The notes: generated by a model from the sequence alone, not told the origin. DNA of 47,593 nucleotides from Catajapyx aquilonaris (GCA_000934665.2 JYFJ02002995.1:1-47593); one strand, 5' to 3'; counted from the stretch's first letter, positions 8,039 through 45,080 are shown. A program made the numbers and translations.

Positions 8039-9076
8039 TCACGCTTTCAGACTATGAATCGAGTAAATACTTTGCACCTCACCCTCGTGGTCCTGCATGT
8101 GACGCTGCAACTCGGATTCGTCAGTAAAGCCTTTCTTACACTGGATGCAAACATGAGCCGGTTCTTGCGCATGTTCCGCATGTTGCGCATGGGAAAAGGG
8201 CCTTCCGACAGTGTGAGTTCGGATGTGGCGGCCCAACTGGTACTTTTGTCTAAACGCTTTTCCGCACGCCGTACAAGGAAATGGCCTTTCTCCCGTATGG
8301 ATTCGCTTGTGGACGTCCAACCCAGACTTTCGTTTAAACCCTTTCCCACATTCGGTGCAAGAGAATGGTTTTTCTCCCCCGTGAGTCCGCATGTGGATGT
8401 CCATTCGGGACTTTAGTCTAAACCCTTTTCCGCACACAGAACAACGAAACGGAACTTCCCCATTGTGACTATCCATGTGGCTATCCAGTTGGTACTTACG
8501 CTGAAACGTCTTTCCACATTTCGAGCAAGAGTACGCATGGATTTTCATATGATCTTCCAACAGATCTTTTTGATGGAAGCCCTTATCGCACAAGTCGCAA
8601 AAAAATTGCCTAACACCATGCACCGCACTGTGCGTAATCAAATTGTATTTCTTCTTGAAGGCCTTGTTGCATATCTTGCACACATGTTGTCCTTCCGTGG
8701 CGTGAACCTTCATGTGACGCACTAACTGGCGACCAGTTTTAAACAATTTCAAGCATACCTTACAGATAAACACTTTCTGATTTATATTGTCCGCACTTGT
8801 TTGGGACTGTTGCGGTTCTTCAGGTCCTGCGAGTCCCATAGGAAGCTCCCATGCGTTCATTCCAGTCAGCGGTGCATCCTCCTGAAAGAAGCCAACGAAA
8901 TGTATAAATTGTGTGTCGCCACGATTATGTTTCAGGCATACCTGACATGAAAACTCTTCCTCGTTTGCGTAAAGGAACTCATTATAATATGAGCTGTGTT
9001 GCACATTCAGCACTACGTCATGCTCCATCGCCACAAACGGCTGCTCTCCCGTGCGGCTTCTTTGTTGCGGATCATC
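8039..9076 (-). CDS. C2H2 ZF terminal module J (linker exon 9076-8942 + ZF exon 8881-8039; 8 intact fingers)
   Basis: Phase-0 acceptor TTTTTTCAG|GATGATCCG; 60-nt intron; tandem C-x2-C-x12-H-x3-H fingers with TGERPF-type linkers; AATAAA at 7894-7889. Confidence 0.85.
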   Translation of the reverse strand, partial: DDPQQRSRTGEQPFVAMEHDVVLNVQHSSYYNEFLYANEEEFSCQVCLKHNRGDTQFIHFVGFFQEDAPLTGMNAWELPMGLAGPEEPQQSQTSADNINQKVFICKVCLKLFKTGRQLVRHMKVHATEGQHVCKICNKAFKKKYNLITHSAVHGVRQFFCDLCDKGFHQKDLLEDHMKIHAYSCSKCGKTFQRKYQLDSHMDSHNGEVPFRCSVCGKGFRLKSRMDIHMRTHGGEKPFSCTECGKGFKRKSGLDVHKRIHTGERPFPCTACGKAFRQKYQLGRHIRTHTVGRPFSHAQHAEHAQEPAHVCIQCKKGFTDESELQRHMQDHEGEVQSIYSIHSLKA

Positions 9077-9329
9077 CTGAAAAAATCATGTCATGAACTG
9101 TACACACTTATTCGCATGCAAACGTGATTGCCTAAATCATTATGAAACGCATGCTACACCGTCTTTTAAAATGAAACCTCCAACTCCCTACAACGATCAA
9201 TTTATTCGTTCCAAGTACAAATTAGTTTCGGGTCGGACCACAAATCATTGCGATTACAAAACAACATTGCCGGTACATTAGTACAAAGGAGCTCATACAG
9301 AAAGTACATAAAATTTGTGTCCGACAGGT

Positions 9330-10560
9330 TCAAGGAACGTATGAATCGAGTTTCCGCAGCCCTACACCCTCGTGGTCATTCACGTGACGGTGCAGCTCGG
9401 ATTCGTCAGTAAAGCCTTTCTTACACAGCATGCAAACATGAGCCGGTTCTTGCGCATGCACTGCCATGTGCCTGTCCAATCCCTGCTTGTACGCAAACCC
9501 TTTCCCACACACGGCGCATGAAAATGGCCTTTCTCCGGTGTGAGTTCGCATGTGGCGGTCCAACTGGTACTTTTGCGTAAACAATTTGCCACACTCGGTA
9601 CAAGAGAAAGGTCTTTCTCCCGTATGAGTTTGCATGTGACGGTCCAATTGGGACTTTCGTCTGAACAGTTTTCCGCATGAAGCGCACGAGAAAGGTTTTT
9701 CTCCCGTATGAATTCGCATGTGCAAGTCCATCTGGTACTTTCGTCTGAACCTTTTTTCGCATGCAGAGCAAGAATACGGTTTTTCTCCGGTGTGAGTTCG
9801 CATGTGGATGTCCAAGCTAAACTTTTCTATAAACCCCTTTCCGCACTCGTTGCACGGAAAGGGTTTTTCTCCCGTGTGTGTTCGCATGTGGACGTCCAAT
9901 TTTGACTTGTATCTAAACCCCCTTCCGCACATGGAACATGAAAATGGCACTTTTCCAGTGTGAGAAGCCATGTGGCTATCCAATAGGCACTTTTGCTGAA
10001 ATGTCTTTGCACATTCCTTGCAAGGGTACGCATGGCTTTTCAAATGCTTCCCCAAATGGTCCTTTCGAAAGAAGCCCCTATTGCAGACGTCGCAAAAAAA
10101 TCGGCGTGTACCGTGCAATGCACTGTGCCTAGTCAAGTGCGATTTCTCCTTGAAGGATTTGTTGCAGGTGACGCAAACGTGTGGCCTTTCCGGACCAGCT
10201 AAGCAAACCTTACGAGAAGATAATGTCTGATTTACATTAGTGCTCTCGTGATTGTCCGCACTTGTTTGCGACTGTTGCGCTTCTTCAGATAATGAGAATC
10301 CTGCGGCATCGATTCCCGTCAGTGGTTCATCCTCCTGTAAGAATCGAACATACGCTGTATTAGAACACTGGCTGTCATTCAATGCGGTTATTATGTTTAA
10401 AAACCTTCAGGCGTACCTGACATGAAAACCCTTCACGCTTTGGAATGGTGAACAGATGATTATATGAGTCGTGTTGCACATTCAACACATGGTCATGATC
10501 CATCCCGACAAATGGCTGCTGTCCCATGCTGCTTCCTTCTTGCGGATTCGTGTTCAGCAC
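9330..10560 (-). CDS. C2H2 ZF terminal module I (exons 10560-10417 and 10334-9330; 10 fingers, first finger deleted)
   Basis: Phase-0 acceptors (the first, AAG, is less certain); donor TGTCAG|GTACGC; HTGEKP linkers; AATAAA at 9206-9201. Confidence 0.85.
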
Positions 10561-10829
10561 CTTGAAATCGTTAAGAAATGGCTACTTTAATCTCAGAGCC
10601 TATGTTGGCCAGCGTTTGTTATAAAAATGCGGCTAAACAGTATCGTTTTGGCTTGCTCGCACGTCATGTGCCTAAAATACTACTTAAAATGAAACTTACA
10701 AAGAACAAGCCTTGCTGTCCACTACAACCTTCAATTTATTTGTTCAAAGTACAAAATAGTTTTGGTCCGACAACGGATCACTGTGGTTACAAAAATTGAT
10801 TTTTCATTGAAGCCTTTCTTACACAGTAT

Positions 10830-11948
10830 TCACACAAAAGCAGGATCTTTGGCATGCACTGCCATGTGCCTGTCCAATACCTGCTTGTGCGCAAACCCTT
10901 TGCAGCACACTGGGCATGAAAAGGGCCTTTCTCCCGTGTGAGTTCGCATGTGGACAACCAAGTTCGATGTTTCTGTAAACCCCATGCCACACTCAGAGCA
11001 CGAAAAGGGTTTTTCTCCCGTATGAGTTCGCATGTGCCGGTCCAAGCCATACTTGCTTCTAAACCCTTTTCCGCACTCAGTGCACGAAAAGGGTTTTTCT
11101 CCGGTGTGAGTTCGCATGTGCTTGTCCAAGTGAGACTTGCTTCTAAACCCCTTTCCGCACGCAGTGCATGAAGAGGGTTTTCCTCCCGTATGAGTTCCCA
11201 TGTGCTTGTCCAAGTCGGACTTTAGTCTAAACCCTTTTCCGCACACAGTACATGAAAACAGGGCTTCTCCCATGTGAGAAGACATGTGGCTATCCAATTG
11301 GCACTTTTGATCAAACGTCTTTTCACATACCCTGCAAGAGTATGGGTGGGTTTTCATATGCCTCCCCAACAGGTCCTTTCGAAAGAAGCCCTTATTGCAC
11401 ACTTCACAAAAAAATTTCCTTTCGCCGTGCACCTTGCTGTGCAGAGTCAAATTCTTTTTATACTTGAATGATTTGTCACAGATCATGCACTGGTGTGGTC
11501 CTTCATTTGGGTGGACCCTCATGTGAGACCTTAATTCGCAACCAGTTTCAAACAACTTCAAGCATACGTTACAAGAAAAGACTTTCTGATTTACGTTAGC
11601 GCTCTCTGGATTGTCCAAACGCTGTGCTTCTTCAGGTGCAGAGAAGCCAGAAGGCAGCTCTCCTACGGCATCGATTCCAGTTGGCGGTTCATCCTCCTGA
11701 AAGACAACACATTATATATTAGAACACATTGCTGTACGACTACGTACAGTCTTTCATTTGTGTGCAGCCGCATGACTCTTTAAGATGCGATTATATTTAA
11801 ACAACTTCAGGCGTACCTGACATGAAAACTCTTCCTGATTGTACGAGTCGTGTTGCACATTCAGCACTATTTCATGCTCCATCACTATCTCATGCTCCAT
11901 CATGACAAATAGCTGCTCTTCCATGCTGCTTCCTTCTTGCGGATCCTC
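10830..11948 (-). CDS. C2H2 ZF terminal module H (exons 11948-11817 and 11696-10830; 9 fingers, last finger lost to a TGC>TGA stop)
   Basis: Phase-0 acceptors and donor; ZF array; premature TGA where sister modules have the Cys of the terminal CILCKKGF finger; AATAAA at 10740-10735. Confidence 0.85.
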
Positions 11949-13113
11949 CTGTAATTATCAGTCATGTACTGTACACAGTCATTCGCATGCAAAAGTGAAT
12001 CCCACAAAAGTCCTTTCTTCACACCCCAATAATGAAGACTGCTATGAATTCGCATCATTCTGTATGAGTCGTTGGTATTGTCATTATTAGTTATTATAAA
12101 AATGCTTGGCTTGCACATTGCCTACATGTGGCTAAATAATAATTAAGAAATGCTCGCTACACCGTAATTAAAATGAAAGATCAACTCTGCCTACAATGAG
12201 CAATTTATTCGTTCCAAGTACAAATAGTGTTGGTCGGACCACAATTAATTGTGATTACAAAAGGATATTGCGGTGCAATGATTAATAGGCCTACCTCACA
12301 CTATTTAAAAATAAAAAAAATTGAGGTCAGAAGAAGCTCATACAGAAAGTAGACAGCAAGTGAAGAAGTCTTCAATTGTCTACATACACTAGCGTCTTGA
12401 ACTACACCAGCCATTTTAATTGCAGCGCAGCAAAATAATTAATGCTCTTTAAATGAGACAGCTGCAACTTTAAAAGAAATAATAATAATAATAATAAACA
12501 TAAAGGTTTGACCTGAGAAAATGTGATGTTGCTCATGTTTTGTACGTAAAGTGAGATTTTCTTGTACAAAAAAAAAAAAAAGTATGAAACAGATACATAT
12601 TATAATGCTTTTTAACATGATTGACAATACTTATATCCTGATGTGATTGCACATTTTTTTTCACATCATGTGTGTACATCTACAGTACAAAATAATACTT
12701 AAAAATTAGTTATTTTCCTTATCAATTCAGAATAATATATTTCAAAGACTATTCTTTTGATTTTTATAAGGTCCGACTGAAAATGCCTTTTGTTAAACCA
12801 GTGCCGTTGCAACTTGCTTAACAATGAAAATAATGACGATAACATTTGGACCTTTCAAAAAAAAAAAAAAAACATTACAGGTATCTACCAGGCATTCGGC
12901 TACATACAATATCAAAAGAAAGCAAAAAGTAAAGAAAAAAAACAACCATTGAATGTTCCAACTGCTGTGGAGGCATGTACGACAACAATGAACAAGAACA
13001 GAGGACATGAATTGCTTGACGCGGACAAGTTCTGATTACTTCGGTACATCCCTCCCAGCAAGTTAAATTAAGAGGGGAAAAAAAAAAAAAAACTTCAAAC
13101 AAAACCCAAGACA

Positions 13114-14666
13114 TCACAACGATGAATCGAGCAATACTTTCCAGAGTCCTTGCACCACACCAGCGTGGTCCTTCATGTGAAGCTGCAAATCGGACTTTTC
13201 ATTGAAACCCTTCTTACAGAGGATGCACACAAAATCCGGATCTTGCGCATGCCCTGCCATGTGCTTAGTCAATCCGTGCTTGTACACAAACCCTTTGCAG
13301 CACACCTTACATGAAAAGGGCCTTTCTCCAGTGTGAGTTCGCATGTGGATGCCCACTTGGGGCTTTCGTCTAAACCCTTTTCCGCACACGGTGCACGGAA
13401 AGGGTCTTTCTCCCGTATGAATTCGCTTGTGGACGTCCAATTGGTACTTGCGTCTAAACCCCTTGTCACACACCGTACAAGAAAAGGGTTTTTCTCCAGT
13501 GTGCGTTTGCATGTGACTGTCCAATTGGTAATTGCGTTTAAACCCTTTGCCACACACGGTGCAAGGAAAAGGTCTTTCTCCCGTATGAATAAGCATGTGG
13601 TAATCCAACCTGTCCTTTCTTCTGAACCCTTTGCCACACACGGTGCAAGAAAAAGGTTTTTCTCCGGTGTGAGTTCGCATGTGGATGTCCAAGTCCGACT
13701 TGCGTCTAAACCCCTTTCCGCATGCAGTGCAAGAAACAGGTTTTTTTCCCTTATTGTGAGTTCGCATGTGCCTGACCAAGTGGTCCTGTCGTCTAAACCC
13801 TTTTCCGCAGACAGTACAAGAAAACGGCACTTCTCCAGTGTGACTCTCCATGTGGCTATCCAATTGGCTCTTAAGCTTAAATGTCATTCCACATTCATTG
13901 CAAGAGTACGATGCATGACTTTTCAAATGCTTCCCCAAGGAGTCCTTTCGAGAGAACCCCTCATCGCAAATTTCACAAACAAATTTCCTTACCCCGTGAA
14001 CCTTGCTGTGCCTAGTCAAATTCCACTTATTCTTGAAGGACATGTTGCAGATCATGCACACATGCGGCACTTTCTTTGTGTGAACCTTCACGTGAGACCT
14101 TAATTGGCGACCAGTTTTAAACAACTTCATGCATACCTTACAAGTAAACCGTTTCTGATTTGCATTAGCGCTCTTCTGGTTGCCCGCACTTGTTTGGGAA
14201 TGTTCAGGTGCTGCAAATCCCAGAGGAAGCTCGCTTATGTCGATTCCAGTCAGCAATTCCTGGAAGACAAACAAGTGTATTAGAACACACTGCTGCACGA
14301 CTACTTAAGGCCCATACACACAGGCCGTCGACGGTTTTGGTTTTTGGTCGCGTTGACGCCGCGGACCAATCATGACCCACGTAAACAAGCTCTAAACAAT
14401 GGGTTGCGCTTGTTTACATGGGTCATGATTGGTCCGCGGCGTCAACGCAACCAAAAACCAAAACCGTCGACGGCCTGTGTGAATGGGCCTTAAGTCTTTC
14501 ATCATGAACACCTTTAGGCATACCGTACCTGACATGAAAACTCGTCCTGATTTGCATATGTGAACTCGTGATTGTAAAACGAGTTGTGTTGAACATTCAG
14601 CACATCCACAGGCGCCATCAGGACAAATGGCTGCTCTCCCATGCTGCTCCCTTCTTGTGGATCATC
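13114..14666 (-). CDS. C2H2 ZF terminal module G (exons 14666-14529 and 14259-13114; 12 fingers)
   Basis: Phase-0 acceptors and donor; ZF array; AATAAA at 12209-12204. Confidence 0.85.
14309..14489. mobile_element. Near-perfect palindromic MITE with TTAA flanks, in the intron of module G
   Basis: TTAA-GGCCCATACACAGGCCGTCGACGG...CCGTCGACGGCCTGTGTGAATGGGCC-TTAA, with arms of about 80 bp; absent from the homologous intron of module H. Superfamily (Kolobok- or Harbinger-like) not determined. Confidence 0.85.
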
Positions 14667-14845
14667 CTGAAAAAAAGCAGTCATGTACAGTACGCACTCA
14701 TTCGCATGCGAAATTGAACACCACAAGCGGTTCATCCACACCCAATAATTTAGACAGCTAAACAGAATTGTTTTGGCTTCTTCATTGCCGCTACACCGTA
14801 CTTAAAATGAAACTTCCAAGACTCAACTTTCACTACAATCTTCAA

Positions 14846-14903
14846 TTTATTCGTTCCAAGTACAAATAGTTTCGGTCCGACCACAACTGATTGCGATTAC
14901 AAA
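14846..14903 (-). promoter_or_regulatory. Conserved polyadenylation cassette (representative copy; one per ZF module)
   Basis: Minus strand TTTTGTAATC...GTGGTCGGACC...TTTGTACTTGGAACGAATAAA. AATAAA copies at plus-strand 7889, 9201, 10735, 12204, 14846, 16200, 18324, 20620, 22430 and 24280. Confidence 0.75.
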
Positions 14904-14989
14904 ATGACACTGCAAGTGCAACGTGTCGTTAAACCAATTTAAAAAAATTCATCAATGTAGAAAGATGAATTGACCGGTTATGGAACATA

Positions 14990-16021
14990 TTATGTCTTGG
15001 ACTCTGAATCGATTAATACTTTCCACAGCCCTTGCACCACACCCGCGTGGTCCTTCATGTGCTCCTGCAAATCGGACTTTTCATTGAAACCCTTCTTGCA
15101 CAGTATGCAAACAAAAGCGGGATCTCGCGCATGCCCTGCCATGTGCTTAGTCAATCCGGTCTTGTACGCAAAACCTTTGCAGCATACCTTACAAGTAAAG
15201 GGTCTTTCTCCAGAGTGAGTGCGCATGTGACGGCCCAAGTGCGATTTTTGTCCGAACCCTTTTCCGCACACAGTACAAGAAAAAGGTGCTTCCCTCTTGT
15301 GAGTTCGCACGTGCTTGTCCAAGTGGTACTTTTGTCGAAACCCTTTTCCGCACACAGTACAAGAAAAAGGTCTTTCTCCCGTGTGAGTTAGCATGTGCCT
15401 GTCCAATTTGCACTTTTCTATAAACCCCTTTCCGCATACAGTGCACGGAAACGGTTTTTTCCCCGTATGAATTCCCATGTGCATGTCCATGCGGCACTTG
15501 TGTAAAAACTCTTTTCCGCACACCGTACAAGAAAACGGCACTCCTCCATTGTGAGAAGAAAACATGTGGTTATCCAGTTGGTACTTATGCTCAAACACCT
15601 TTTCACATTCCAAGCAAAAGTACGCATGTGTCCGCAAATGACCGGCCAACTGGTCCTTTCGAAAGAATCCCTTATTGCATCCGTCACAAAAAAATTTCGT
15701 TCCGCCATGAACCTTCCTGTGCCTATTCAAATTCTGTTTATTCTTGAAGGATTTGTCGCACGTAACGCAAACGTGTGGTCTTTCCTTCGTATGAACCAGC
15801 AAGTGAGACTTCAAGTTATTATACTTTTTAAACACCTTCAAGCATACCTTACAAGTAAAGACTTTCTGATTTACATTAGTGGTATCGTGATTGTCCGCGC
15901 TTGTTCGGGCGTGTTGGGCTTCTTCAGGCAGCTCCTCGTTGTACGAGTTGTGTTGCACATTCAACACAGCATCATGCTCCAATGGCTGCTCTCCCGTGCT
16001 GCTTCCTTCTTGCGGATCCTC
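14990..16021 (-). CDS. C2H2 ZF terminal module F (single fused exon; 10 fingers)
   Basis: Phase-0 acceptor TTTTCAG|GAGGATCCG; the linker exon runs directly into the ZF exon with no intron; AATAAA at 14851-14846. Confidence 0.85.
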   Translation of the reverse strand, partial: EDPQEGSSTGEQPLEHDAVLNVQHNSYNEELPEEAQHARTSADNHDTTNVNQKVFTCKVCLKVFKKYNNLKSHLLVHTKERPHVCVTCDKSFKNKQNLNRHRKVHGGTKFFCDGCNKGFFRKDQLAGHLRTHAYFCLECEKVFEHKYQLDNHMFSSHNGGVPFSCTVCGKEFLHKCRMDMHMGIHTGKKPFPCTVCGKGFIEKCKLDRHMLTHTGERPFSCTVCGKGFRQKYHLDKHVRTHKREAPFSCTVCGKGFGQKSHLGRHMRTHSGERPFTCKVCCKGFAYKTGLTKHMAGHARDPAFVCILCKKGFNEKSDLQEHMKDHAGVVQGLWKVLIDSESKT

Positions 16022-16753
16022 CTGAAAAGAAGCAGTCATGTACTGTACGTACATATTCGCATGCAAAAGTGAACGCCACATTATAATTATTATAAAAAAA
16101 TGCTGCTAAACACTATTGTTAATTGCCTAAAATCATTAAGAAATGCGTGATACACCGTGTAATGAAACTTCCAAGACCAACTCTCCCTACAATGGTCAAT
16201 TTATTTGTTCCAAGTACAATAATAGTTTTGGTCGGACCAAATTGCGATGACAAACAAATGATTAATACCTTACACTAATCAAATAATTGTTGGGAGGTCA
16301 TACGAACGTCATACATAAAGTACATGAGATGGGGGAAGGGAAGTCTTCAATAATTGTCTACGCACTACCATTATCAAATTCGGAAGAAAATATTTTAAAA
16401 AGACTTTCCCATGGTCCAACTGACAATTTATTTGTTACAAGTGCCGTCGCAATTAGCTTAACAATAAAAGTAATTAATTGACGTGGAAGGAACATTGACC
16501 AAACGCATTTTCCAAGCAGCTGAAAAGAATATTCGGCGCTGCGTGTTATACCAAAAGTAAAGAATGGAAAAGTATAGAAAGTGCTACCACAAATATGAAC
16601 AAGATGATTCGGATTAATTCGATCCCTCGGCAGCATTTAGCGAGTCAAATTAAGGAGAGACGAAACGACAAAACAAAGAGAGAATGTGGCACTTGGAAGA
16701 CGTAACAAAAATCACGATTTGTCTCTTACTTATTAAGGAACATACGTATCCGA

Positions 16754-17969
16754 CTATGAATCGAATAGTACTTTCCACAGTCCTTGCACCTCACCCGCGT
16801 GGTATTGCATGTGCTTCTGCAAATCGCATTTTTCAGTAAATCCCTTCTTACACAGTATGCAAACAAAAGCTGGATCATGCCCTGCCATGTGCTTGTCAAG
16901 TTCGGTCTTGTCCACAAAACCTTTGCTACTCTCTCCAGTGTGAGTTCGGATGTGGCGGTCCACTTGGGGCTTGTATCTAAACGCTTTTCCGCACACGGGG
17001 CATGGAAACGGTTTTTCCCCCGTGTGAATTCGCATGTGGATGTCCAAGGCGGACTTGCCGATAAACCCTTTGCCACACACGCTGCATGGAAAAGGTTTTT
17101 CTGCCATGTGAAATCGCATGTGCTGGTTCAAGTAGGACTTTTTTCTGAACCCTTTTCCGCATACTGTACAAGAAAAGGGTGCTTCTCCCATGTGAGTTTT
17201 CATGTGCATGTTCAATCCTTGCTTGTACACAAACCCTTCGCCACACGTGGTGCAAGAAAAGCGTTTTTCTCCCGTATGAGTTTGCATGTGGATGTCCATT
17301 TGGTACTTTCGTCTAAACCCTTTTCCGCACACGGAACAAGAAAACGGCACTTCTCCAGTGTGAGAAAACATGTGCTTATCCAGTTGGGACTTATGCTTAA
17401 ACGACTTGTCACATTCTGTGCAAGAGTATGCGTGGCTTTTCAAATGAACCACCAACTGGTCCCTTCGACAGAAGCCCTTATTGCAGACGGCACAAAAAAA
17501 TTTCTTTACACCATGCAACGCCATGTGCTTAGTCACAGCTTGTTTATCCTTGAAGGATTTGTTGCAGATTATGCACTCCAGTGGTCCTTCATTTGTGTGG
17601 ACCCTCGTGTGAGACTTTAATAGGCGACCACTTTTAAACAACTTCAGGCATACCTGACAAGAAAACACTTTCTGATTTACATTAGAGGTCTCGTGATTGT
17701 CCGAACTTGTTTGGAAGTGTCGGGATTCTTCAGGTCGTGAAAATCCAGCAGGCCTGCGTCCTGCGTCGAATCCAGTCGGCAGCTCATCTCGCTGCAAGAC
17801 AACGCACGGTATATTAGAACACTGCTGCTGCCTTTTTAAGATGTGATTATGGTTAAACAACTTCAAAGCATACCTGATCGCATGAATTGGGTTTCACTTT
17901 CAGCACATCGTCACGCTCCATCATGACAAACGACTGCTCTCCCATGCTGCTTCCTTCTTGCGGATCCTC
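16754..17969 (-). CDS. C2H2 ZF terminal module E (exons 17969-17874 and 17791-16754; 10 intact fingers)
   Basis: Phase-0 acceptors and donor; penultimate finger lacks its Cys pair; AATAAA at 16205-16200. Confidence 0.85.
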
Positions 17970-17990
17970 CTGAAAAGTAGAAGTCACGTA

Positions 17991-18141
17991 CAGTGTTGGA
18001 CGTTAATTGGGGCATACTTCCAACGACATTTTCCGAAGCGGCAGAAGAAGGAATCTTGCTCGTCCGGCTCATCTTCGATTCCTTATTCTGCCGCTTCGGA
18101 AAATGTCGCCAGCAATATGACTCGATTAATGCTCAACACTG
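17991..18141. mobile_element. Palindromic MITE with TA target duplication
   Basis: TA-CAGTGTTG...CAACACTG-TA; internal perfect arms CGACATTTTCCGAAGCGGCAGAA / TTCTGCCGCTTCGGAAAATGTCG; absent from the homologous position of sister modules. Confidence 0.8.
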
Positions 18142-19204: not shown

Positions 19205-20466
19205 CTATGAATCGAGCAATACTTTCCAGAGTCCTTGCACCACACCCGCATGGTTCTTCATGTGCTGATGCAAATCGGACTTTTCATTGAAACCTTTCTT
19301 ACAGAGTATGCACACAAAATCTGGATCTTGCGCATGCACTGCCATGTGCTGGTCCAAGTTGGACTTTTGCGAAAACCCTTTGCAGCACACCTTACAAGAA
19401 AAGGGCCTTTCTCCCGTGTGAATGCGCATGTGCTGGTCCAAGTTGGACGTTTGCGAAAACCCTTTTCCGCACACCGTACAAGAAAAGGGTTTTTCTCCCG
19501 TGTGAGTTCGCTTGTGGACGTCTAAGCCGGACTTTCGTCTAAACCCTTTTCCGCACACAGTACAAGAAAAGGGTCTTTCCCCCGTATGAATTCGCTTGTG
19601 GACGTCCAAGCCGGACTTTCGTCTAAACCCTTTTCCGCACACCGTACAAGAAAAGGGTTTTTCTCCAGTGTGAGTTCGCATGTGCTGGTCCAAGGCGGAC
19701 TTTTTCGAAAACCCTTTTACGCACGCAGTACACGGAAATGGTTTTTCTCCCTTGTGAGTTCGCATGTGCCTGACCAAGTGGTCCATTCGTGTATACCTTT
19801 TTCCACATACAGTACAAGAACGAGGCACTTCTCCAGTGTGAGAAAACATGTGGATATCCAGTTGGTACTTAAGCTTAAACGACTTTTCACATTCCTTGCA
19901 AGAGTATGATGCGTGACCTTTCAAATGCCTCCTCAAGTGGTCCCTCTGCAAGAAGACCTTATTGCACACTTCACAAATAAATTTCTTCCTTACACCATGC
20001 ACCTTGCTATGCCTAGTCAAATTAGGTTTAGACTTGAAAGATTTGTTGCAGATCATGCAAACGAATGGTCTTTCCATCGAATGAACCAGCATGTGATTCT
20101 TTAAGCTCTGATTATTTTTAAGCAACTTGAAGCATACCTCACAAGAAAAGGATTTCTGATTTACATTAGTGCTCTCGTCATTGTCCGCGCTTGTTTGTGC
20201 TTTTCCAGGTGCTGCGGGGTTAAGTCCAGTCAGCATTTCCTCCTCCTGAAAGACAACACATTGGACATTAGAACACACTGCTGCAAGACTTGGTACGTAG
20301 CCACATAACTTTTTACGATGCGATCATGTTTAAACACCTTCAAGCGTACCTGACATGAAAAGGCTTCCCGGTTGTACGAGTTGCGTTGCACATTCAGCAC
20401 CACGTCAGGCTCCATCATGACAAACGACTGCTCTCCCGTGCTGCTTCCTTCATGCGAATCCTCCTC
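19205..20466 (-). CDS. C2H2 ZF terminal module D (exons 20466-20350 and 20245-19205; 11 fingers)
   Basis: Phase-0 acceptors and donor; ZF array; AATAAA at 18329-18324. Confidence 0.85.
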
Positions 20467-21008
20467 CTGAAAAGTAGCAGTCCTGTACTGTACATACTTA
20501 TTCGCATGCAAAAAGTGAATGCCTCACAAGTCCATCATCCACACCTCAACAATGAAGATGCCTAGCTACGCATGAAACTTTCCAAGATCAAGACCCAACA
20601 TCCACTTACAATCATCCAATTTATTTTGTTCCAATTACAAATAGATTTTGGTCAGACCACAACTCATTGAGATTACAAAACGACACTGCCGCTGCAACGA
20701 TTAAACCCTTCAAGTAATTTAAAAAAATGTTTCAGGTCATCAAGTCATCCAGAAAGTACATATGACAGGGCGGAGTCTTCAATTGTCTACGTACACTCTA
20801 CTGTTGTACTACCCAGCAGCCTAATCGCAGTGCAGTGTAAGTATTAATGCTTTTTTTAAAAATTAGGCCGTCTCACTTTTTTAAAATCGCAATAATATAA
20901 ACGTTGCATGAAGTGAAATTTTCTATCGCACAACAGCATTAAATTAAGAAAAAAATAAAATTGAACGAACGTCCACTTAGAAGACATCGCAATTCTTTCG
21001 TTATCTGA

Positions 21009-22167
21009 CTATGAATCGAGCAATACTTTCCAAAGTCCTTGGACCACACCAGCGTGGTCCTTCATGTGCTGCTGCAAATCGGACTTTTCATTGAAACCTT
21101 TCTTACAGAGTATGCACACAAAAGCCGGATCTTGCGCATGCCTTGCCATGTGCTTGTCCAATCCAGCCTTTTGTACAAACCCTTTGCGGCACACCTTACA
21201 TGAAAAGGGCCTTTCTCCCGTGAGAGTTCGCATGTGGACGTCCACTCGGGACTTGTATCTAAACCCTTTCCCACACACCGTACAAGAAAAGGGTGTTTCT
21301 CCCTTATGAGTTCGCAAGTGCTGGTCCAAGTTGGACTTTTGCGAAAACCCTTTTCCGCACACCGTACAAGAAAAGGGTTTTTCTCCCATGTGAGTTTTCA
21401 TGTGCATGTTCAATGCTTGCTTGTACACAAACCCTTCGCCACACGTGGTGCAAGAAAAGGGTTTTTCTCCCGTATGAGTTCGCATGTGGATGTCCATGTG
21501 GAACTTTCGTCTAAACCCTTTTCCGCACACGGAACAAGAAAACGGCACTTCTCCAGTGTGTGATAACATGTGGTTATCCAGTACGTACTTATGCTTAAAC
21601 GACTTTTCACATTCCTTGCAAGAGTATGCATGGCTTTTCAAATGATCCGCCAACTGGTCCTTCCGAAAGAAGCCCTTATTGCAGACGTCACAAAAAAATT
21701 TCCTTACACCATGCAACGTCATGTGCCTCTTCAAATTGTGCTTAATCACGAAGGATTTCTTGCAGATTATGCACACATGTGGTCTTTTCAACGTGTGAAA
21801 CTTCATGTGGTACGTTAACTGCCCATTATTCTTAAACACCTTCAAGCATACCTGACAAGAAAACCCTTTCTGATTTACATTAGTGCTCTTGTGTTTGTCC
21901 AAACGGTGTGCTTCTTCAGGGGCTGCGAATCCAGATGGCAGCTCCCATGCGTTGATTCCAGCCAGTGCTTCATACTTCTGAAAGATAAATAGACAACACG
22001 ACGAATATTAGAACACATTGCGGATGTGATTATGTGTTCTTCAAGCATACCTGACATGAAAACTCTTCCTCGCTGAATGAGTCGGGTTGCACCTTCAGCA
22101 CCACGTCAGGCTCCATCATGAAAAACGACTGCTCTCCCGTGCTGCTTCCTTCTTGCGGATCCTCCTC
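21009..22167 (-). CDS. C2H2 ZF terminal module C (exons 22167-22051 and 21977-21009; 10 fingers, one lacking its last His)
   Basis: Phase-0 acceptors and donor; ZF array; AATAAA at 20625-20620. Confidence 0.85.
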
Positions 22168-23082
22168 CTGAAAAAAATAAAGTCGTCTACTGTACACACT
22201 TATTCGCATGCAAAGGTCCTTAATCCACACCACAATAATGAAGGCGATTTTGCACACTTCTGTACGAGTTACCTGACGTCCAACAACCTGACCACTTGTG
22301 CTTGGAACACATCCCCGGCATCACCTTGTATGATTTTCCTGCACACAATACAAGGAATTGTCTGGATGTGTTTGGGCAATCAAGTCGCACATGAAAATGA
22401 ACACTAGTTCTGCTTTCGCCTTCACTCCTTTTATTCATCCAAGGTACAAATACCCAGAAAAAAAAAAAAATGCGGCTCAAAACAAAAAATCATACGAGAA
22501 AAGACAAAATAAAAACCCCACAATGCCTACGCAATTGGAGGGGGGGAAATTATCAGCAAGAACAATACTTTTTCCTTCCAAATAATAAGTACGATATAAA
22601 ATAAAAGAGCTGTAACTGAAAAACCTATGATGATTATAAAGTCTTTGAACACATTATTACACCTTTCTTCTCTCGCATCCGAGAACTAATCGGTTTTAAT
22701 TTAACCGATGTGTGTACAGATGGGAGGTAATAATACTGTTAAATTAAATCCTCATTCTCCACACGGGAGTATTGCACCCTCTTTTTTTCCGCATATTAGT
22801 TTGAACATTAATCCTAAGCAAGTTTTCTCCAAATATATTATATCCGAATATTTATAAAAATATAATTCAACAAACAACTTTCGCATCGACTAACCCTGAG
22901 AAAAAGTGTGGAATTGACTGATCGATTCAGACTGATATGACTGAATCGAAATTTCTTTTTTGATTAGTAAGTTGCCTCTCCCTTCAAAAATTTCATCCAA
23001 AAAAATTAAACGTCATTAATCAAAAACCTAAAAAGACCGTTTTCTTTTTATTTTTAGAGGCAACGTCTCCGCATGTATCTTA

Positions 23083-23685
23083 TCAGTTGAGCAGCACTTT
23101 CCGGATGCCGTTTGCATGAACCTTCATGTGCCGCTTCAAATCAGTCGCTTCAGGAAAATCTTTCTTGCACAATATGCAAGAGAATTTTTTCTGCCCGTGA
23201 GTTAGCATGTGTTTCTTCATTGCAAGCTTCGTATGAAACACTTTACTGCACACCTCACATGAAGAGGTTAGTTCTTCACCGTGAATACGACACACATGGA
23301 CAGCCAAGTGCCACTCTTGCGCATAACCTTTTCCGCACATGCTGCATTTGAATGACTTTTTCCCTCCGAACCGCTCCTTCGAATTTTGTTTCTTTTCCGA
23401 ACAATGAGCGAGTAATTTTCCTACATGGACCTTTTTGCAATGCTGAACGAAAGTGATCCTATTCATGAAGCCTTTCTTGCAGATGTCGCACACATGACAT
23501 GTGCCTGTATGAGTACGCATATGTTTTCCTAAATGGCAATGCATGTAAAACGACCTGTCACATACGCGGCAAACAAATTCTTTCTTATTCACCTTAGTGC
23601 CAACGAATGGCTCTTCATTACGTTCTTCTTGTGCCGCATTTCCTGGCGGCGGTGGTCCAGCTTCATCTCCACTCTCTTCATCGTC
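23083..23685 (-). CDS. C2H2 ZF terminal module B (single exon; 5 fingers)
   Basis: Phase-0 acceptor TTCTCAG|GACGAT; ends in the shared CILCKK terminal finger; AATAAA cassette at 22435-22430. Confidence 0.8.
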   Translation of the reverse strand, partial: DDEESGDEAGPPPPGNAAQEERNEEPFVGTKVNKKEFVCRVCDRSFYMHCHLGKHMRTHTGTCHVCDICKKGFMNRITFVQHCKKVHVGKLLAHCSEKKQNSKERFGGKKSFKCSMCGKGYAQEWHLAVHVCRIHGEELTSSCEVCSKVFHTKLAMKKHMLTHGQKKFSCILCKKDFPEATDLKRHMKVHANGIRKVLLN

Positions 23686-24645
23686 CTGAGAAGTAAAAGA
23701 CATTTACACGCTTGTTGCAGAAAGCCCTCTACACGTAATATTAGAACCTCCGGGATGCATTAATTCTCATCGAGTGAGACGCAGCTTCCAACATCGTCAG
23801 GATACTCATTACATGCATTTTGGAGATTCACGACAAGTAAAATGCTACTTGTAAACAAGAGAAAAGAACCACCACCTGTCATGCAGTTAACAGTGTTTCA
23901 AAATGTCTGAATCGGTTACTTGGGTACGCCCAGGGTAATGCTACGTACAAAAGTGCAGCAAAACATGCCTCGCAGTGAAGAGTTGGTGATAAATTCTACA
24001 CTTAAAAATACTTACTCCGAAGTTATTAATTTTCCCTCTTACATGTTTCACATGCAACAAAAAATAGAAAAGTGCACAGAAAAATCATACGTGTTCACCT
24101 GAAGGCCCAGCAGCAACGTACTACAATTATTTGAGCCAGAGCTGTAGACATGTCCGCATGGTTTCAAATGAACTCGGTACTTTTCCAAACCCAGTTCGAT
24201 TAGTCATCCTTTATACAAACATGCCTAAAGGAAAAGGACACCCAAACAAAATGGTGTTGATTTCATTCCTTCGTTTTTTTTTATTCATCAAAAGTACAAA
24301 CGGCCATTTCAGATCAAAATAAAATAATAAAAAAACAGAAAATATTACGTGGCCCTTTTCCAAATGCAACAATATCAGATCCGAATAATGATATGACCAT
24401 AACACATATCTAACTGTGCGTATGCTACTCTTGTTCTCTGCATATGCCACATCATGACGCAAAAAAAAAAAATGAACGGCCAATATTGTTATGTTGCAGA
24501 GTCCATTCCTGGCAGATCGCTTTTTTTTCTTTTGACTAACCCTGAGAAATACAAGCACGGAATGGCCCCCTACAATTCACATTGGACTAATACGATTACG
24601 CACCGAATATATTGGAAAAAAAACAACCCTGAATAATAGCATTTG

Positions 24646-24751
24646 CCATATTTGACGGCATATAAGACGGCACCCGTATTTCAAGATTAAAAATCTTTCG
24701 CATTGCCATTTTTTGTGGGGATAATTGCGTCTTACGTGCCGTCAACTTCGG
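24646..24751. mobile_element. Second copy of the Tc2/pogo-like MITE, in the 3' UTR of module A
   Basis: CCATATTTGACGGCATATAAGACG...CGTCTTACGTGCCGTCAACTTCGG-TA; same TIR as 911-1064. Confidence 0.65.
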
Positions 24752-24804
24752 TAATTGGAAGAGCACATGGCGCATAAATGCTTGAGATACTGAGCCGTAC
24801 TTTT

Positions 24805-26148
24805 CTACATACTTTCCACCACACCCGGATGAGCCTTCATGTGCTGCTGCAAATCAGACACATCGGAAAAACTCATCTTGCATAGGACGCAAGAGAAAAC
24901 TTCGTGTAGTCGCATGTGCTTAATCAGTCTCATCCGACGAGGAAACCCTTTGCCACACAAGTTGCAAGGAAACCGGTACTTTCCGGTGTGAATTTCAAAG
25001 TGAGTCCGCAGGCTAGGCTTTTGCGTAAAACTCTTTCCGCATACATGGCATGGAAATTTCTTTTTTCCTTCACACGATCGCAATGGTTGAGTCGTGATTT
25101 TAACCCCTTTCTTGGGCACCGCTACATTTCCATGTAGTTCCATGTGCTTAATCAGTCTGGCTTTACGAGCAAACCCTTTCTTACAGATCTTGCAAGTGAA
25201 CTCGTATTCTCCGGTGTGAACTGAAAAGTGAGTATTCAGGTCACTTCTTTGTTTAAAACCTTTACCGCATCGAGTGCATGAAAATGGCCTTCCAGAAGTT
25301 TGCAATCGTCGATTAAAGTTTCCGCCTATTTTGCGCACAGCATGTCGGCCTACTGCCATGTGCTTCACAAGGTAGCACTCGCGAGTAAACCCTTTATGAC
25401 ACACCTTGCAAGAATACGCGTATTCTCCAGCGTGAAGTCGACGGTGTCTGATCATGTTACCCTTTTTAGTGAAACATTTTCCACATACATTGCATGGAAA
25501 TGAATTTCCCCCTCCACGAGTTTGCAATTGTCGACTCATGTTTTTCTTGACTCCTGTTTTCGGCACAGGACGATTCTCATGTCGGCCTACTGCCACGTGG
25601 TTCTCCAGGTAGCTCCTGCGACCTAATTTGCACATGTCCTGATGTTGGCTTGTTGCCAAGTGCTTTGCCAGGTAGGAGCTATGAGTAAACCCTCTATGAC
25701 ACGACTTGCAAGAATACCGGTATTCTCCCGTGTGAAATGAAAGGTGAATGCCCAAGTTCCACTTTGTGGTGTAACGCTTTCCGCATACATCGCATGGAAA
25801 TAGCCTTTTCCCGCCACATCGTCGACTCGCAGTTTTCTTAACCCCTTTTTTGGGCACTGCAAGAGACCATTTTCCCTTGCAGTGCAGTTTGTAATGCGTA
25901 TACAAAGATCTCTTGTGCTTGAACAAATTGTTGCAGACCATGCACGTAAAAGATGCTTCACGTTCGTGAACAAACATGTGAGCCGTTAAATAGCGTTTCG
26001 TCTGAAACGTTTTGTGGCATACGTTACAACCGAATGGTCTCCCGTTTACAGGCGTTCCCTGACAATTATCCGGGCCGGTTTGCAACTGAGGTTCTTCCTG
26101 AGGTACTGAACGTCCAGGCAGTGCGCTGGTTCCAGTGTCCAGTTCCTC
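24805..26148 (-). CDS. C2H2 ZF terminal module A (single exon; 11 fingers, mostly in pairs separated by basic linkers)
   Basis: Phase-0 acceptor CCTTTCAG|GAGGAA; the first in-frame ATG after the acceptor falls inside finger 1; AATAAA cassette at 24285-24280. Confidence 0.85.
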   Translation of the reverse strand, partial: EELDTGTSALPGRSVPQEEPQLQTGPDNCQGTPVNGRPFGCNVCHKTFQTKRYLTAHMFVHEREASFTCMVCNNLFKHKRSLYTHYKLHCKGKWSLAVPKKGVKKTASRRCGGKRLFPCDVCGKRYTTKWNLGIHLSFHTGEYRYSCKSCHRGFTHSSYLAKHLATSQHQDMCKLGRRSYLENHVAVGRHENRPVPKTGVKKNMSRQLQTRGGGNSFPCNVCGKCFTKKGNMIRHRRLHAGEYAYSCKVCHKGFTRECYLVKHMAVGRHAVRKIGGNFNRRLQTSGRPFSCTRCGKGFKQRSDLNTHFSVHTGEYEFTCKICKKGFARKARLIKHMELHGNVAVPKKGVKITTQPLRSCEGKKKFPCHVCGKSFTQKPSLRTHFEIHTGKYRFPCNLCGKGFPRRMRLIKHMRLHEVFSCVLCKMSFSDVSDLQQHMKAHPGVVESM

Positions 26149-26854
26149 CTGAAAGGTGAAAATTACACATGCACACTAAAACCAAAACTGTTTCAATTCA
26201 GTGTCAAACAAATGCAGCTTTGATCTTTGCCTCAATGTATCATTTACGAGTATAATCATGCAACTTCTCATCCCCAGAAAGTGAATTAAGCTCCGGTTCG
26301 GATACGTTGCACGGCAAATGGATTTCCTTGCTTAAAATCTGTACGTAATACATTTTACAAACCGGCCACTGTTTGCTCCTGGACTCAAAAATTCAAACCG
26401 TAATCTGCTGACGTCTAGCGTCAAACTTTCAACAACAACAAAGTGTCATGGTTCCTTTTTTCCCGCGGCAAACATGTTCACGGACTACATTCAGAACTGA
26501 TAACAATCAAAGTGAAGTGACATGGAAAATGCAAAGTCTAAGTACAACTTGCACACCAAACTGCAATGAAAATATACCATCACCTTTCTCTTTAGTACCA
26601 ACTCTTCACTTGCAAACTACTTGGTGCTCTAAATGCTACGGCTACTAGTTAAGTGCACACGGAAATGTGAGCTACACATGCAATATTCTGTAACTCCTGC
26701 GTACAAAATTGGGCAAAAATATTTGAATTTTTTAAAAAATTTTAAATGTGTGTTATATCACACAATATTCTATGAAAATGTATACGAATGTAATTATCGC
26801 AGTCCAATTTTGTTCCCCAAGCTGAAAATTAAAGTTGCGTTTCAGCGAGCTCAC

Positions 26855-29800
26855 CTCTTGTGTGAGTCCGGGAGGTTCCAACTTCTCATCCATTGGTGTG
26901 CTTGTACGGTCCGGCGGGTGTTCATGGTAAATGTCGAGTACGGGCATCTTCCCAGGTGTCACTTCAGCTTCTCCGAGTTCACCTTGTCGCACATCTGGTC
27001 TCGGGGTCGCAGCTTCACCTGATTTCTCAACTGCAGAGGATGCAGTCCTTGTTGCCTGCCGAGTTCTCCCTCGTTGAAGCTTCGCCGGTTGCTCCTGGGT
27101 TGGCTTCTCCTGGGCGGAACATCCATCAGAGCTGGTCTCATGGCCAGGCGCACATCCGCCGTTTCCATCTGTCGCAGCCACACCGCCATTCTGCTTCAGC
27201 AAGTTCAAAGCATACAATTAGTAAACCAACCTACAAAAATTTTATAAGACATTTCTCTCACCTGCTTTTCAACTTCCTCGGGGTGCTTTTCCAGCTGGTG
27301 CTGATCCAACTCTGCTTTCGCGGTGAATGCGTCATCGCAGAGTGCACACAGCCAAAGCTGTGCCAGTTTAATGACCGGTTCCATCGCCTGCTAATAGTGA
27401 AGAAGTGTTACACAATCGCATGTAACGGCAAATTTTATTGAAACTTTACCTCTGGCGGTTCGGGGCTCTCTTTGCGTCCATTCGGCTGGGATTTAACGCT
27501 CTCTTGGTCCGATTCGGATTCCACACGTAGCTTACGAGGTCGTCCTCTCCTTCCGGATCCTCTAGGACCCTTCGCCTGATTCATAGCGTCTGCTTGTTTT
27601 TCTCCTAAATCTGCGTTTGGTGTTTGAGCATCTGACTTAAATCTCTTTGGTGGGCCGTTGTCTTGAGCTTTCTTCTCGGTTGAATTCTGAGCCTGTTCTC
27701 TCTTCTTCCTGCCAGGTGGGTTCTTCTTCTGGTTCCCGACATTTGCGCGATTCGCAGGCGGAACCAGCGTGATAGTCAACTGATCCGAAACTTGTTGTTG
27801 CTGAGTCTGATCCTTCTTCTCCTTCACCATTCGAAACCGTTTCAGCTGCTCCAGAAGACTTCCTTGTGTTTCTGACAGGTCCATCCTGGTCATTTCATTA
27901 TCCTCGGCATCTTCCATCACACTTCCCGATCCATTCTGCTCATCTTCTTCATCCGATGCCATTTCGGAAGAATCCAACTGCACATCAGCAGTTGAAACTT
28001 CATCATCTCCCACGCCTTGTTGACTTAGCTCCGCAGCCTCCGTGCCCGATGTGGCTGCTCCTGATTCTTCCTCATGAGGCGACTAAAAATAGACAATTAT
28101 TATCGCAATGAGTGGAATCCCTTTTTAACTTGTAGAAATAAACGCAAATAAATCTACCAAAATCAGGTACATTGTCGCAAGATGTCTGATTCAAATAATT
28201 GTACATTATGTACATTAAACACGGTATTAATCATTGTGAGACTTAACAGATCGAAAAATGTTGACAAACTAATAAAAAACGTGGCTGTTATAGTAATTAA
28301 ATGCCGCTGAATCGCACGAGAGATAGACAGCGCACCATGCGCTTCAGCCCTGCTAAATGGCGGCCCTGGTCTACTCAATCTTAGACCTTGCCGTAAACCA
28401 TTTTCAGCCAAGTTTTATTACCTTGCACACAGAGCTGCATTTCCTTTGTTCGCCCTCCTACATCCTCTCATGTACCCCGCCTTTTTTCTTATCAACATGT
28501 AAACCAGAGAGCTGTAGCTCCGTCCCACTCCAAAGAAGCAAACAATCCATATCTTTCTTCCCTTATCTTGCCCTTGAACTGCGGACTTCCATTACCCCCG
28601 CTCATATTGCTGCCTCCTTGCATTACACAAATGGTCATGATGCTGCCTGCATCCACATCTCAACTTTGAGATGTCCAACATGTGCTTTAAAATATTTTAG
28701 AAGATTCACCAAATATTGCTAACTATTACGTACTTTTCAATTGGCAATTCCCTAACGACATAGATTGGCCAAAACCAGTACGAAGGTACTGCTATAACAT
28801 TTCTTGCAAGGAGCTGCCTCTTTGTACCCACCCAACCCGCAATAAGGTGCGTGGAATCTACGGAACTGTATCGTTAGAATATCCAGTACCGTATCGGCAG
28901 GGAGCTCACCTAACCCGCAATAGTATCGATCAGTGCGATAACCTTTGGTATACAACATGGCCGTAGCAGAGCGGAATCGGAAAATGGGATGCTGCGCATA
29001 TGATTAAAATGTCTAACTTCTGTTCTACACGGTTGTTTGAGCTCAAATTTTCCGTCACTCGGAAAAGTCAGAACTAGGTCCCTATGCACTTATGGGTCTG
29101 TCACACAGGCGTTCCGTTCGCTCGCCCCGAAAAATGTCGCTGCGATCGCTGTGCCCAAACTTGTCAGACATGCGCCGACTCGGGCGTAGGATTAACCAGG
29201 AAAAGTGAAAGGCGACCTCGCCTCGGGGGACAAGTGGGTCATGATGGCAGGGGTGGTTGGGGTGGGCAGCTGGCGGGAAAAGGTCTCGGCCAATTGGAGC
29301 CCGACGAGCCTCTTGAGGTAAACGCAGCGAGGGCCTCTTGACTCTCTGCGTCACCCCCAATATCCCCCAATTTCCATGGGCAAAGAGAGAAAAGTCCCGC
29401 CTCTGCACATGTAACGCCGCCATTTTGATGGCAGGCCACGTTTGGCCACGAGACGCGCGCAACTGGAAATTGGTCAATTACCCCACTCAATTGTTGGCTC
29501 CAAACTATCGGTTCAATCACAATATTAATCGCCGTGCAAGTCGCTCACTTGTAAATGAGGCGGCGTACATTGTCCGGAAAAATGTGTTTTCTTACTTGAC
29601 TTGGTTGGGCCAAATATTCAGCCTCGTTTTCTTTGACTGCTGCACCTTCATAGGCCTGGGAACATTCAGGCTCTTGGCTGCCCTGGGAATATTCAGGCTC
29701 TTGGTTGACCTGCGAATCTTCCTCCATGTTCCCAGCGTCCGGCTCATCGAGTGGAATGGGGTCGTCCTCCGCTAGCGGTATCTGCAGGAATGTTCCGCAT

Positions 29801-30114
29801 GCGTCGAATGCCATTAGGAGATCCTTCAGGTCCGGTACAGTCCGGAACGCCAGGGTGACTTCTCCGAGGTAGAGCAAGTGGACGAACCTCTTCAGCGTGG
29901 AGGTATCGAAGTGGGGCAGGCTGATGCACACTTCCTCCTGGCCATTGTCAAGCAGGCCCTGCATGAACGGCGAGCAGGCAGCCAGCACCAGCTTGTGCGC
30001 CTTCACGCACCCGTCCGACCCCAGCATGCGGACGTCCTTGCTGGCCTTGTCCAGCAGAAGCGGGCCGAACAGCGTCCGCACATCGAACGTCTTGTCCCGA
30101 AGCGACAGAGCCAT
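26855..30114 (-). CDS. Common 5' region of a BTB-ZF gene: BTB/POZ exon, acidic exon with AT-hook, single C2H2 exon, linker exon
   Basis: Kozak GCAACCATGG at 30114. Exons 30114-29596 (AHKLVLAACSPF...YLGEV, tramtrack-like BTB), 28082-27450 (RRGRPRK AT-hook), 27387-27262 (CALCDDAFTAKAELDQHQLEKH) and 27190-26855. All junctions are phase 0 with no stop codon; the region ends in donor GAG|GTGAGC. Confidence 0.88.
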
Positions 30115-44956: not shown

Positions 44957-45022
<66 letters not shown>

Positions 45023-45080
45023 GTTATTATTATTATTATTGTTATTATTATTATTATTATTATTATTGTTATTATTATTA

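Follow-up and report, generated by a model that had tools for sequence, protein, structure and literature searches.

Introduction

The genes lola, fruitless, broad and tramtrack each combine an N-terminal BTB constant region with alternative C2H2 zinc-finger 3′ exons that carry their own stop codons; lola tails usually have one or two fingers, and in mod(mdg4), where most tails are of the FLYWCH type and are trans-spliced, some tails come from the opposite strand. Here we describe a related locus in a 47,593-nucleotide (nt) stretch of Catajapyx aquilonaris DNA (GCA_000934665.2 JYFJ02002995.1:1-47593; this whole stretch is called the window below), which is probably a single minus-strand gene of about 22.5 kilobases (kb), from ~30400 to ~7873, in which a constant BTB head is followed by ten chained composite terminal exons (modules A to J). 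According to PMC11426971, 17 of the 20 lola isoforms differ in their C-terminal fingers, and PMC13490949 and PMC11426971 describe mod(mdg4) as one BTB head with more than 30 alternative 3′ ends in a row. The Catajapyx locus shares the constant BTB region and the stop-terminated C2H2 3′ exons of lola, fruitless, broad and tramtrack, and the single head with many alternative 3′ ends in a row of mod(mdg4). By contrast with lola, the tails have 5-12 fingers, they are chained via donors before or inside finger 1 rather than each being reached from the common donor, and the head also contains an AT-hook-like motif and a lone finger; unlike mod(mdg4), all ends are C2H2 arrays encoded on a single strand, most simply read as a cis chain. 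The locus belongs to a known kind, the BTB head with alternative finger-bearing 3′ ends; what is new is the length of the arrays (5-12 fingers), their chaining as composite exons and a linker that grows along the chain.

Tandem KRAB and ZAD clusters also consist of tandem-duplicated poly-finger arrays in which the framework changes more slowly than the DNA-contact residues, but there each gene has its own promoter and effector exon, whereas here ten arrays share one head by splicing. The vertebrate BTB/POZ zinc-finger proteins PATZ1 and ZBTB24 have an AT-hook and thus the triad of BTB domain, AT-hook and C2H2 array. The Catajapyx gene has the same triad, as well as the N-terminal strand-helix extension of transcription-factor BTBs in its structural model, whereas PATZ1 and ZBTB24 carry one fixed array; the BTB homologue scan and Foldseek gave no sequence relationship to genes of this type past the BTB fold. 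As for the chain, PMC7852185 places the proximal polyadenylation (poly(A)) site of IgM in a composite terminal exon. As in the IgM mu-s/mu-m switch, a 5′ splice site within a terminal exon would compete with the poly(A) site behind the exon; unlike IgM, where a single decision concerns a membrane anchor, up to nine successive modules are involved and it is the DNA-binding domain that changes. Titles and abstracts in the literature yielded no paper on a BTB zinc-finger gene whose composite terminal exons are chained.

Results

A constant BTB head precedes ten finger modules

Open frames and Pfam matches place the whole locus on the minus strand, the BTB head first and the ten stop-terminated C2H2 modules behind it. 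The constant head comprises 538 amino acids (aa) in four coding exons, each phase 0-0, and contains a BTB domain, an acidic region, a basic motif that we take to be AT-hook-like and a lone C2H2-like finger (a slash marks an exon border, and joints are written as last base>first base):

29596-30114, minus strand: head exon 1, with the ATG at 30114, the BTB domain and an acidic tail
29596 (last base), minus strand: predicted head exon 1 donor, CAA/GTAAGA, outside the contig-covered span
27450-28082, minus strand: head exon 2, 211 aa, an acidic region and then the basic GRRGRPRK motif; acceptor tttttag/TCG predicted, donor 27450 an RNA joint
27262-27387, minus strand: head exon 3, 42 aa, one C2H2-like finger (CALCDDAFTAKAELDQHQLEKH), both borders RNA joints
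26855-27190, minus strand: head exon 4, 112 aa, phase 0, joints 27262>27190 and 26855>23685

Head exon 1 matched the BTB family of Pfam (PF00651, E 4.6e-9), and its AlphaFold2 model had a predicted local distance difference test score above 90 across residues 10-100, with an extension before the BTB core in which residues 2-4 form a strand and residues 12-21 a helix. Foldseek matched the model to the BTB domains of KEAP1, ZBTB8A, ZBTB32, BACH1, BCL6 and Miz-1 (best E 5.6e-8). The protein thus has a BTB/POZ fold at its N-terminus (Pfam, model and Foldseek), and the N-terminal β1-α1 extension combined with C-terminal C2H2 fingers (model, Pfam and pattern search) is that of ZBTB/POK-type proteins; judging from the fold, the head would be expected to dimerize. 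When the BTB exon was scanned with HMMER against 1.84 billion representatives, 157 hits reached E≤0.001, the top one at 34% identity; best matches with names were spider, ostracod, cricket and Artemia proteins, one of them named lola. The homologue search of this exon against longer proteins found nothing. The Tramtrack group of BTB domains has been described as restricted to arthropods, and PMC11426971 defines it by a conserved N-terminal FxLRWN motif. In the alignment the relatives read F/YxLRWN where the Catajapyx domain reads LSLRDK, so that L and R are kept, F is replaced by L, and W and N are lost. By sequence comparison, then, the domain resembles those of the arthropod Tramtrack group without having the FxLRWN motif. 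Head exon 2 matched no Pfam family, and the finger of head exon 3 gave weak C2H2 matches under the Pfam cut-offs (E 0.0017-0.039).

Contigs join modules in series

A prediction made earlier by a model from the sequence alone (the original prediction) had proposed one unit in which the head, ending in a common phase-0 donor at 26855, is joined directly to each of ten phase-0 acceptors. To compare this with RNA, we used the assembled contigs of the only public run listed as containing this DNA (X1, share 0.32), the kind of which is not on record and which we take to be RNA-derived because its joints are GT..AG exactly at predicted exon borders. The contigs were aligned over 7990-27989; statements about joints concern 15 of the 19 found, and 102 contig pieces lie beyond those considered. 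The modules are as follows:

24805-26148, minus strand: module A, open frame of 447 aa, 11 fingers, stop 24805-24807, AATAAA at 24285
23593-23685, minus strand: B linker, internal exon of 31 aa, donor AAG/GTGAAT, joints 26855>23685 and 23593>22167
23083-23592, minus strand: B finger array, 5 fingers and stop, in frame if donor 23593 is unused; AATAAA/ATTAAA at 23052, 22700 and 22435
22051-22167, minus strand: C small exon, 39 aa, RNA joints on both sides
21009-21977, minus strand: C composite exon, 9 fingers, stop, AATAAA at 20625; joints 22051>21977 and 21852>20466; linker 21977..21852 of 42 aa, donor CAG/GTATGC inside finger 1
20350-20466, minus strand: D small exon, 39 aa, RNA joints on both sides
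19205-20245, minus strand: D composite exon, 11 fingers, stop, AATAAA at 18329; joints 20350>20245 and 20138>17969; linker 20245..20138 of 36 aa
17874-17969, minus strand: E small exon, 32 aa, RNA joints on both sides
16182-17791, minus strand: E composite exon, linker, 10 fingers, stop at 16754, 3′ untranslated region to the contig end at 16182; acceptor 17791 an RNA joint; two candidate onward donors, 17681 and 17654
14990-16021, minus strand: F composite exon without a small intron, 10 fingers, stop, AATAAA at 14851; joint 15875>14666; linker 16021..15875 of 49 aa, donor AAT/GTAAAT
14529-14666, minus strand: G small exon, 46 aa, RNA joints on both sides
13114-14259, minus strand: G composite exon, 12 fingers, stop, AATAAA at 12209; joints 14529>14259 and 14137>11948; linker 14259..14137 of 41 aa
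11817-11948, minus strand: H small exon, 44 aa, RNA joints on both sides
10830-11696, minus strand: H composite exon, linker, 9 fingers, early stop, AATAAA at 10740; acceptor 11696 an RNA joint; predicted onward donor 11595 or 11568
9330-10560, minus strand: module I as read from the sequence, predicted small exon 10560..10417, predicted finger exon from 10334, 10 fingers, AATAAA at 9206
7873-9076, minus strand: module J, the last, predicted small exon 9076..8942, finger exon starting at 8881 with 8 fingers and a stop at 8039, then AATAAA 7894-7889 and an inferred RNA end near 7873

Thirteen of the 15 joints fell precisely on predicted borders and had GT..AG on the minus strand: two within the head (exon 2 to 3 and exon 3 to 4), one from the head to B (26855>23685), five across the small introns of C, D, E, G and H, and five between modules (B>C, C>D, D>E, F>G and G>H). 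The common donor (CAAGAG/GTGAGC, last exon base 26855, phase 0) was thereby borne out by sequence and by an RNA joint. All ten predicted acceptors follow AG, nine of them with a ttttcag/ctcag/tacag-type tract, and six (23685, 22167, 20466, 17969, 14666 and 11948) were used in contigs. The non-canonical rows, a CA..CA joint 11030>15182 and a row that goes back (12260>7990), may be joins between repeated finger sequence.

Direct splicing from the common donor to every module did not emerge from these data: among the 15 joints, 26855 joined B only, the contig leaving it skipped module A, and C, D, E, G and H were each entered from a donor of the preceding module (23593, 21852, 20138, 15875 and 14137, respectively). 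Since there is one depth figure per contig, joints of equal depth lie in series on single contigs. A 1110-nt contig of depth 11.5 consists of 523+126+336+93+32 nt, corresponding to head exons 2, 3 and 4, the B linker and the C small exon, so that the predicted unit of BTB head and stop-terminated finger modules held as far as this contig reaches, from head exon 2 to the C small exon. Five joints at depth 11.3 span the C small exon to the E linker, and a 505-nt record with three joints at depth 6.09 runs through the F linker, the G small exon and the G linker into the H small exon (64 nt). Neighbouring small exons have at most ~28 identical starting bases in common, which argues against mis-threading by the assembler if assembly words of ~31 letters are assumed. 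The joints between modules lead us to read the tails as chained composite terminal exons, in which distal isoforms carry the linkers of earlier modules.

An arrangement as in lola, with 26855 spliced directly to all ten acceptors and the chain as a minor by-product, would agree with the direct joint 26855>23685, with the phase 0 of all acceptors, which makes them compatible with 26855, and with the fact that contigs retain the dominant path only, 4 of the 19 joints lying outside those considered. It is nonetheless unlikely, because among the joints considered C, D, E, G and H were entered only from the donors of preceding modules, because several linkers lie in series on single contigs, and because the finger-1 donor is kept in B-I, where a pure hub design would not need it.

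All 11 internal exons with joints on both sides are multiples of three and phase 0 (chance ~(1/3)^11), and thus any chain, and any read-through into an array, stays in frame. This bears on the view that the modules are tandem independent zinc-finger (ZNF) genes with their own promoters, the chain joints being functionless conjoined read-through transcripts. Tandem ZNF clusters are common, methionine codons in the small exons (e.g. SSMGEQ, FVMME) could start BTB-less proteins, and automated annotation would call separate genes. Against this view, every module opens at a spliced acceptor and not at a first exon (6 of 10 in RNA), just 125-595 nt separate a poly(A) signal from the next acceptor, and the 11 joint-bounded exons are all in frame with the head; moreover, chain contigs are not obviously minor relative to terminal-exon contigs, though contig depths cannot rank parts of the gene and were not used to do so. 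We regard independent genes as decidedly unlikely. In module A, as the original prediction had stated, no methionine precedes finger 1.

Trans-splicing, in which head and tails would be separate pre-mRNAs joined afterwards, is how isoforms of mod(mdg4) and lola form according to PMC11426971, and contigs are blind to the difference between cis and trans. All parts of the Catajapyx locus lie on the same strand, in order and with short spacers, and a serial chain over five modules is simplest as one pre-mRNA, which makes trans-splicing highly improbable here.

Small exons and onward donors

In six of the ten modules (C, D, E, G, H and I) the frame that starts from the acceptor runs into a stop after 38-78 codons, and a small first exon ending FSCQ/GTA is followed by a short intron and the finger exon. 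These two-part modules go beyond the original prediction, as do a fourth, small coding exon of the head (27387..27262) and a decayed head copy upstream (see below). The small introns measure 73-269 nt in the five modules with RNA joints (C, D, E, G and H). Past the small-exon donor the sequence resembles the start of finger 1 (VRLKVFKH), so the small exon looks like a remnant of an older linker and half-finger. The onward donor lies just before finger 1 (N/VNQK) in B and F and inside finger 1 (FSCQ/VC) in C, D and G, and a donor before or inside finger 1 is positionally kept in B-I.

An inverted repeat of 88 nt (97% complementary) forms a hairpin within the small intron of module G (14303-14495), which is longer for that reason (269 nt), and a second hairpin repeat of 68 nt (82%) lies just upstream of the E acceptor (17988-18144). 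By their sequence, both look like small foldback or miniature inverted-repeat transposable element insertions. The element TGCATGCGAAT, which contains the Rbfox-type motif UGCAUG, precedes the J, H, F, D and C acceptors by 34-45 nt (5 exact occurrences versus 0.03 expected); its recurrence may simply reflect that it is part of the duplicated unit:

9110-9120, minus strand: TGCATGCGAAT, upstream of the J acceptor
11981-11991, minus strand: TGCATGCGAAT, upstream of the H acceptor
16055-16065, minus strand: TGCATGCGAAT, upstream of the F acceptor
20500-20510, minus strand: TGCATGCGAAT, upstream of the D acceptor
22202-22212, minus strand: TGCATGCGAAT, upstream of the C acceptor

A search of 7800-27300 for dock-and-selector pairing gave 65 inverted-repeat pairs, and among the 25 longest none linked one site to many acceptors; the idea of such RNA pairing was dropped on that ground.

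Probable transcript ends behind the arrays

Each module has its own stop codon and at least one AATAAA ahead of the next acceptor, in agreement with the original prediction. The hexamer is present behind all ten arrays, and the last one lies 125-595 nt before that acceptor, as against the ~125-600 bp that had been proposed. In addition, the cassette TTGGAACRAATAAAT occurs eight times with at most one mismatch, always on the minus strand (chance expectation 0.02), behind seven arrays, namely those of D, E (twice), F, G, H, I and J.

In module E, a 1507-nt contig runs unspliced from 17687 to 16182, across both candidate donors and the full array, and ends 18 nt behind the AATAAA at 16205-16200, GU-rich sequence coming next. 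In module J, a contig piece ends at the predicted acceptor, 8880, and 489 further letters of that contig align elsewhere; a 527-letter contig, the aligned part of which starts at 8399, extends 117 letters past 7990, and its length puts the RNA end ~16 nt behind the AATAAA at 7894, the position homologous to the end of E. Contig ends are thus found 16-18 nt behind the hexamer in E and, by inference, in J, bearing in mind that contigs cannot prove tails. As in lola, common exons lead to stop-terminated DNA-binding 3′ exons, terminal read-through being seen for E only.

The donors 23593, 21852, 20138, 15875 and 14137 lie inside frames that continue into finger arrays and stops. Taken together with the in-frame read-through, the ends of E and J and the poly(A) cassette, these frame-internal donors mean that each finger array is best read as a composite terminal exon, at which the transcript either ends or is spliced on.

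Several points weigh against this reading. The sole RNA source is one run of undocumented kind, available as contigs, which lose rare variants and do not give transcript ends and levels rigorously. Among the joints considered, none falls at the acceptors of A (26148), F (16021), I (10560; tttcaag/GTG, atypical in sequence) or J (9076), and none leaves the onward donors of E, H or I. No single module has both fates among the rows at hand, which give splicing-on for B, C, D, F and G and read-through for E. Unspliced cover of the finger arrays could be pre-mRNA, and joints from 26855 directly to distal modules may occur at lower abundance. Finally, no relative of the head above 34% identity was found among the 1.84 billion representatives. 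The bin holding the module A acceptor had almost no contig cover and speaks neither for nor against the use of A, and the contig of module F begins at 16015, six bases inside its acceptor.

The finger arrays are intact and constrained

A pattern search counted 95 fingers, close to the ~96 that had been claimed (A11, B5, C9, D11, E10, F10, G12, H9, I10, J8), of which 89 are strict CX2CX12HX3H. In a Pfam scan of four modules, A, B, F and J, each proved to hold a C2H2 array (PF00096; module A, E 2e-47), and the finger frames are open in all ten modules over 200-447 aa. Modules C-J are 57-73% identical in protein among themselves, while A and B are 37-48% identical to the others. Across the 28 pairs of C-J, the ratio of nonsynonymous to synonymous substitution (dN/dS) was 0.33-0.60 with a median of 0.42, at dS 0.34-0.82. 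DNA-contact positions -1, 2, 3 and 6 were 28.4% identical between modules (281/989); identity was 73.3% in the framework and 64.4% in sequence not belonging to fingers. By these sequence measures, the pattern is that of kept arrays with diverging DNA contacts. The diverse repertoire of DNA-binding specificities in the original prediction is supported to the extent that contact residues have diverged (28% versus 73% for the framework); that the arrays bind DNA would follow from their sequence. Module F, compared with proteins of similar length, matched generic ZNF proteins only, with local identity no higher than 53%, or 47% where the match covered at least two-thirds of the query, and no annotated copy of the gene was found.

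The constraint bears on the view that J is the sole real ending and that the other arrays are decaying intronic relics which are always spliced out. The contigs do splice out the arrays of B, C, D, F and G. However, every one of the ten frames is open, dN/dS stays at 0.33-0.60 at dS of up to 0.82, an unspliced contig passes through the E array and ends behind its AATAAA, and the poly(A) cassette is kept behind the arrays, so that a single functional ending is scarcely credible.

The last finger (CILCKKGFNEKSDLQQHMKDH type) is conserved in nine of the ten tails (A-G, I and J; e.g. 13117-13230) and is followed in most modules by a short tail (AGVVQGLWKVLLDS); in H the stop falls just before it, so that this finger is missing. 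From its sequence, a constant end finger on variable arrays may have a role other than DNA reading.

A model for the choice of array

Under the composite-exon reading, a promoter near 30400 would drive transcription of the constant 538-aa head and then of the ten modules in a row, B-J each opening with a linker in one or two short exon parts behind a phase-0 acceptor. If the donor of a module were ignored, the frame would continue through 5-12 fingers to the stop and the RNA would be cleaved at the AATAAA behind the array, presumably yielding a mature read-through mRNA for every module, including A and I. If the donor were spliced to the next acceptor, the array and its poly(A) site would be removed and a linker of 31-88 aa per module would be added. 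The isoforms would form a ladder, sharing one BTB head and differing in a linker that lengthens with distance and in which of up to ten arrays they carry; at each rung splicing would compete kinetically with polyadenylation, as it does in IgM mu-s/mu-m, and the choice could be regulated. We tentatively extend this to a serial splice-or-terminate scheme, which is possible although we would not yet favor it and which would be a previously undescribed gene design, in which each rung offers an array, each passed rung adds a copy of an acidic-hydrophobic linker (EDPQEGSS..FVMMEPDVVLNV..), position sets both output and linker number, and one parameter tunes the repertoire.

If so, the position of an array would set its frequency and the count of linker/effector repeats between it and the BTB head, and changes in poly(A) strength relative to splicing (e.g. 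in cleavage factors or U1 level) could shift the whole repertoire from proximal to distal. One promoter and one protein-interaction head would serve about ten long finger arrays, combining the isoform diversity of lola with the polydactyl arrays of vertebrates. To our knowledge, the logic that composite terminal exons would repeat here has elsewhere been described just for single switches, IgM being one, and the locus would be a natural system in which splicing competes with polyadenylation at many successive sites of one transcript. Annotation pipelines would divide it among some ten ZNF genes and overlook the head that they share; transcription-factor gene counts, and the assumption of one effector per ZNF, could therefore be wrong for such genomes if the model is correct.

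Upstream region and neighbouring sequences

A candidate acceptor (ttttcag) 13 nt upstream of the ATG would allow for an intron in the 5′ untranslated region. The two inverted CCAAT boxes (GATTGG) found within 30590-30660 on the minus strand are ~480-540 nt upstream of the ATG:

30400-30660, minus strand: probable promoter region with two inverted CCAAT boxes, proposed from the sequence

Further upstream, 32165-35348 on the minus strand is a decayed partial duplicate of the head and module A. Its BTB copy is 5′-truncated (35348 to ~34970), has no start codon and is broken at a 10-nt tandem repeat. The duplicate also includes exons 2, 3 and 4, the first two of these twice, and an A-like linker with one finger ending in a stop (32372..32165). 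The borders of the duplicate are all GT/AG and phase 0, so that its use as extra 5′ exons is possible.

On the other side, the first codon of the downstream neighbour lies at 7635 on the minus strand, and J is therefore the last module. This gene (4491-7635, minus strand) is a fusion of an acyl-CoA-dehydrogenase (ACAD) and an NAD-binding oxidoreductase; in tblastn, a Lingula anatina protein aligned with it through residues 1-761, in six pieces of 30-60% identity, and one of its exons had a brachiopod protein as best match (54%). An Rfam scan of the window matched no family. Positions 46682-47104 on the plus strand hold an exon with the start of a glycoside hydrolase family 18 (chitinase-like) domain (PF00704, E 5.8e-7), and a long AAT/ATT-type microsatellite at 44876-45151 gives rise to poly-N, poly-I and poly-Y open frames.

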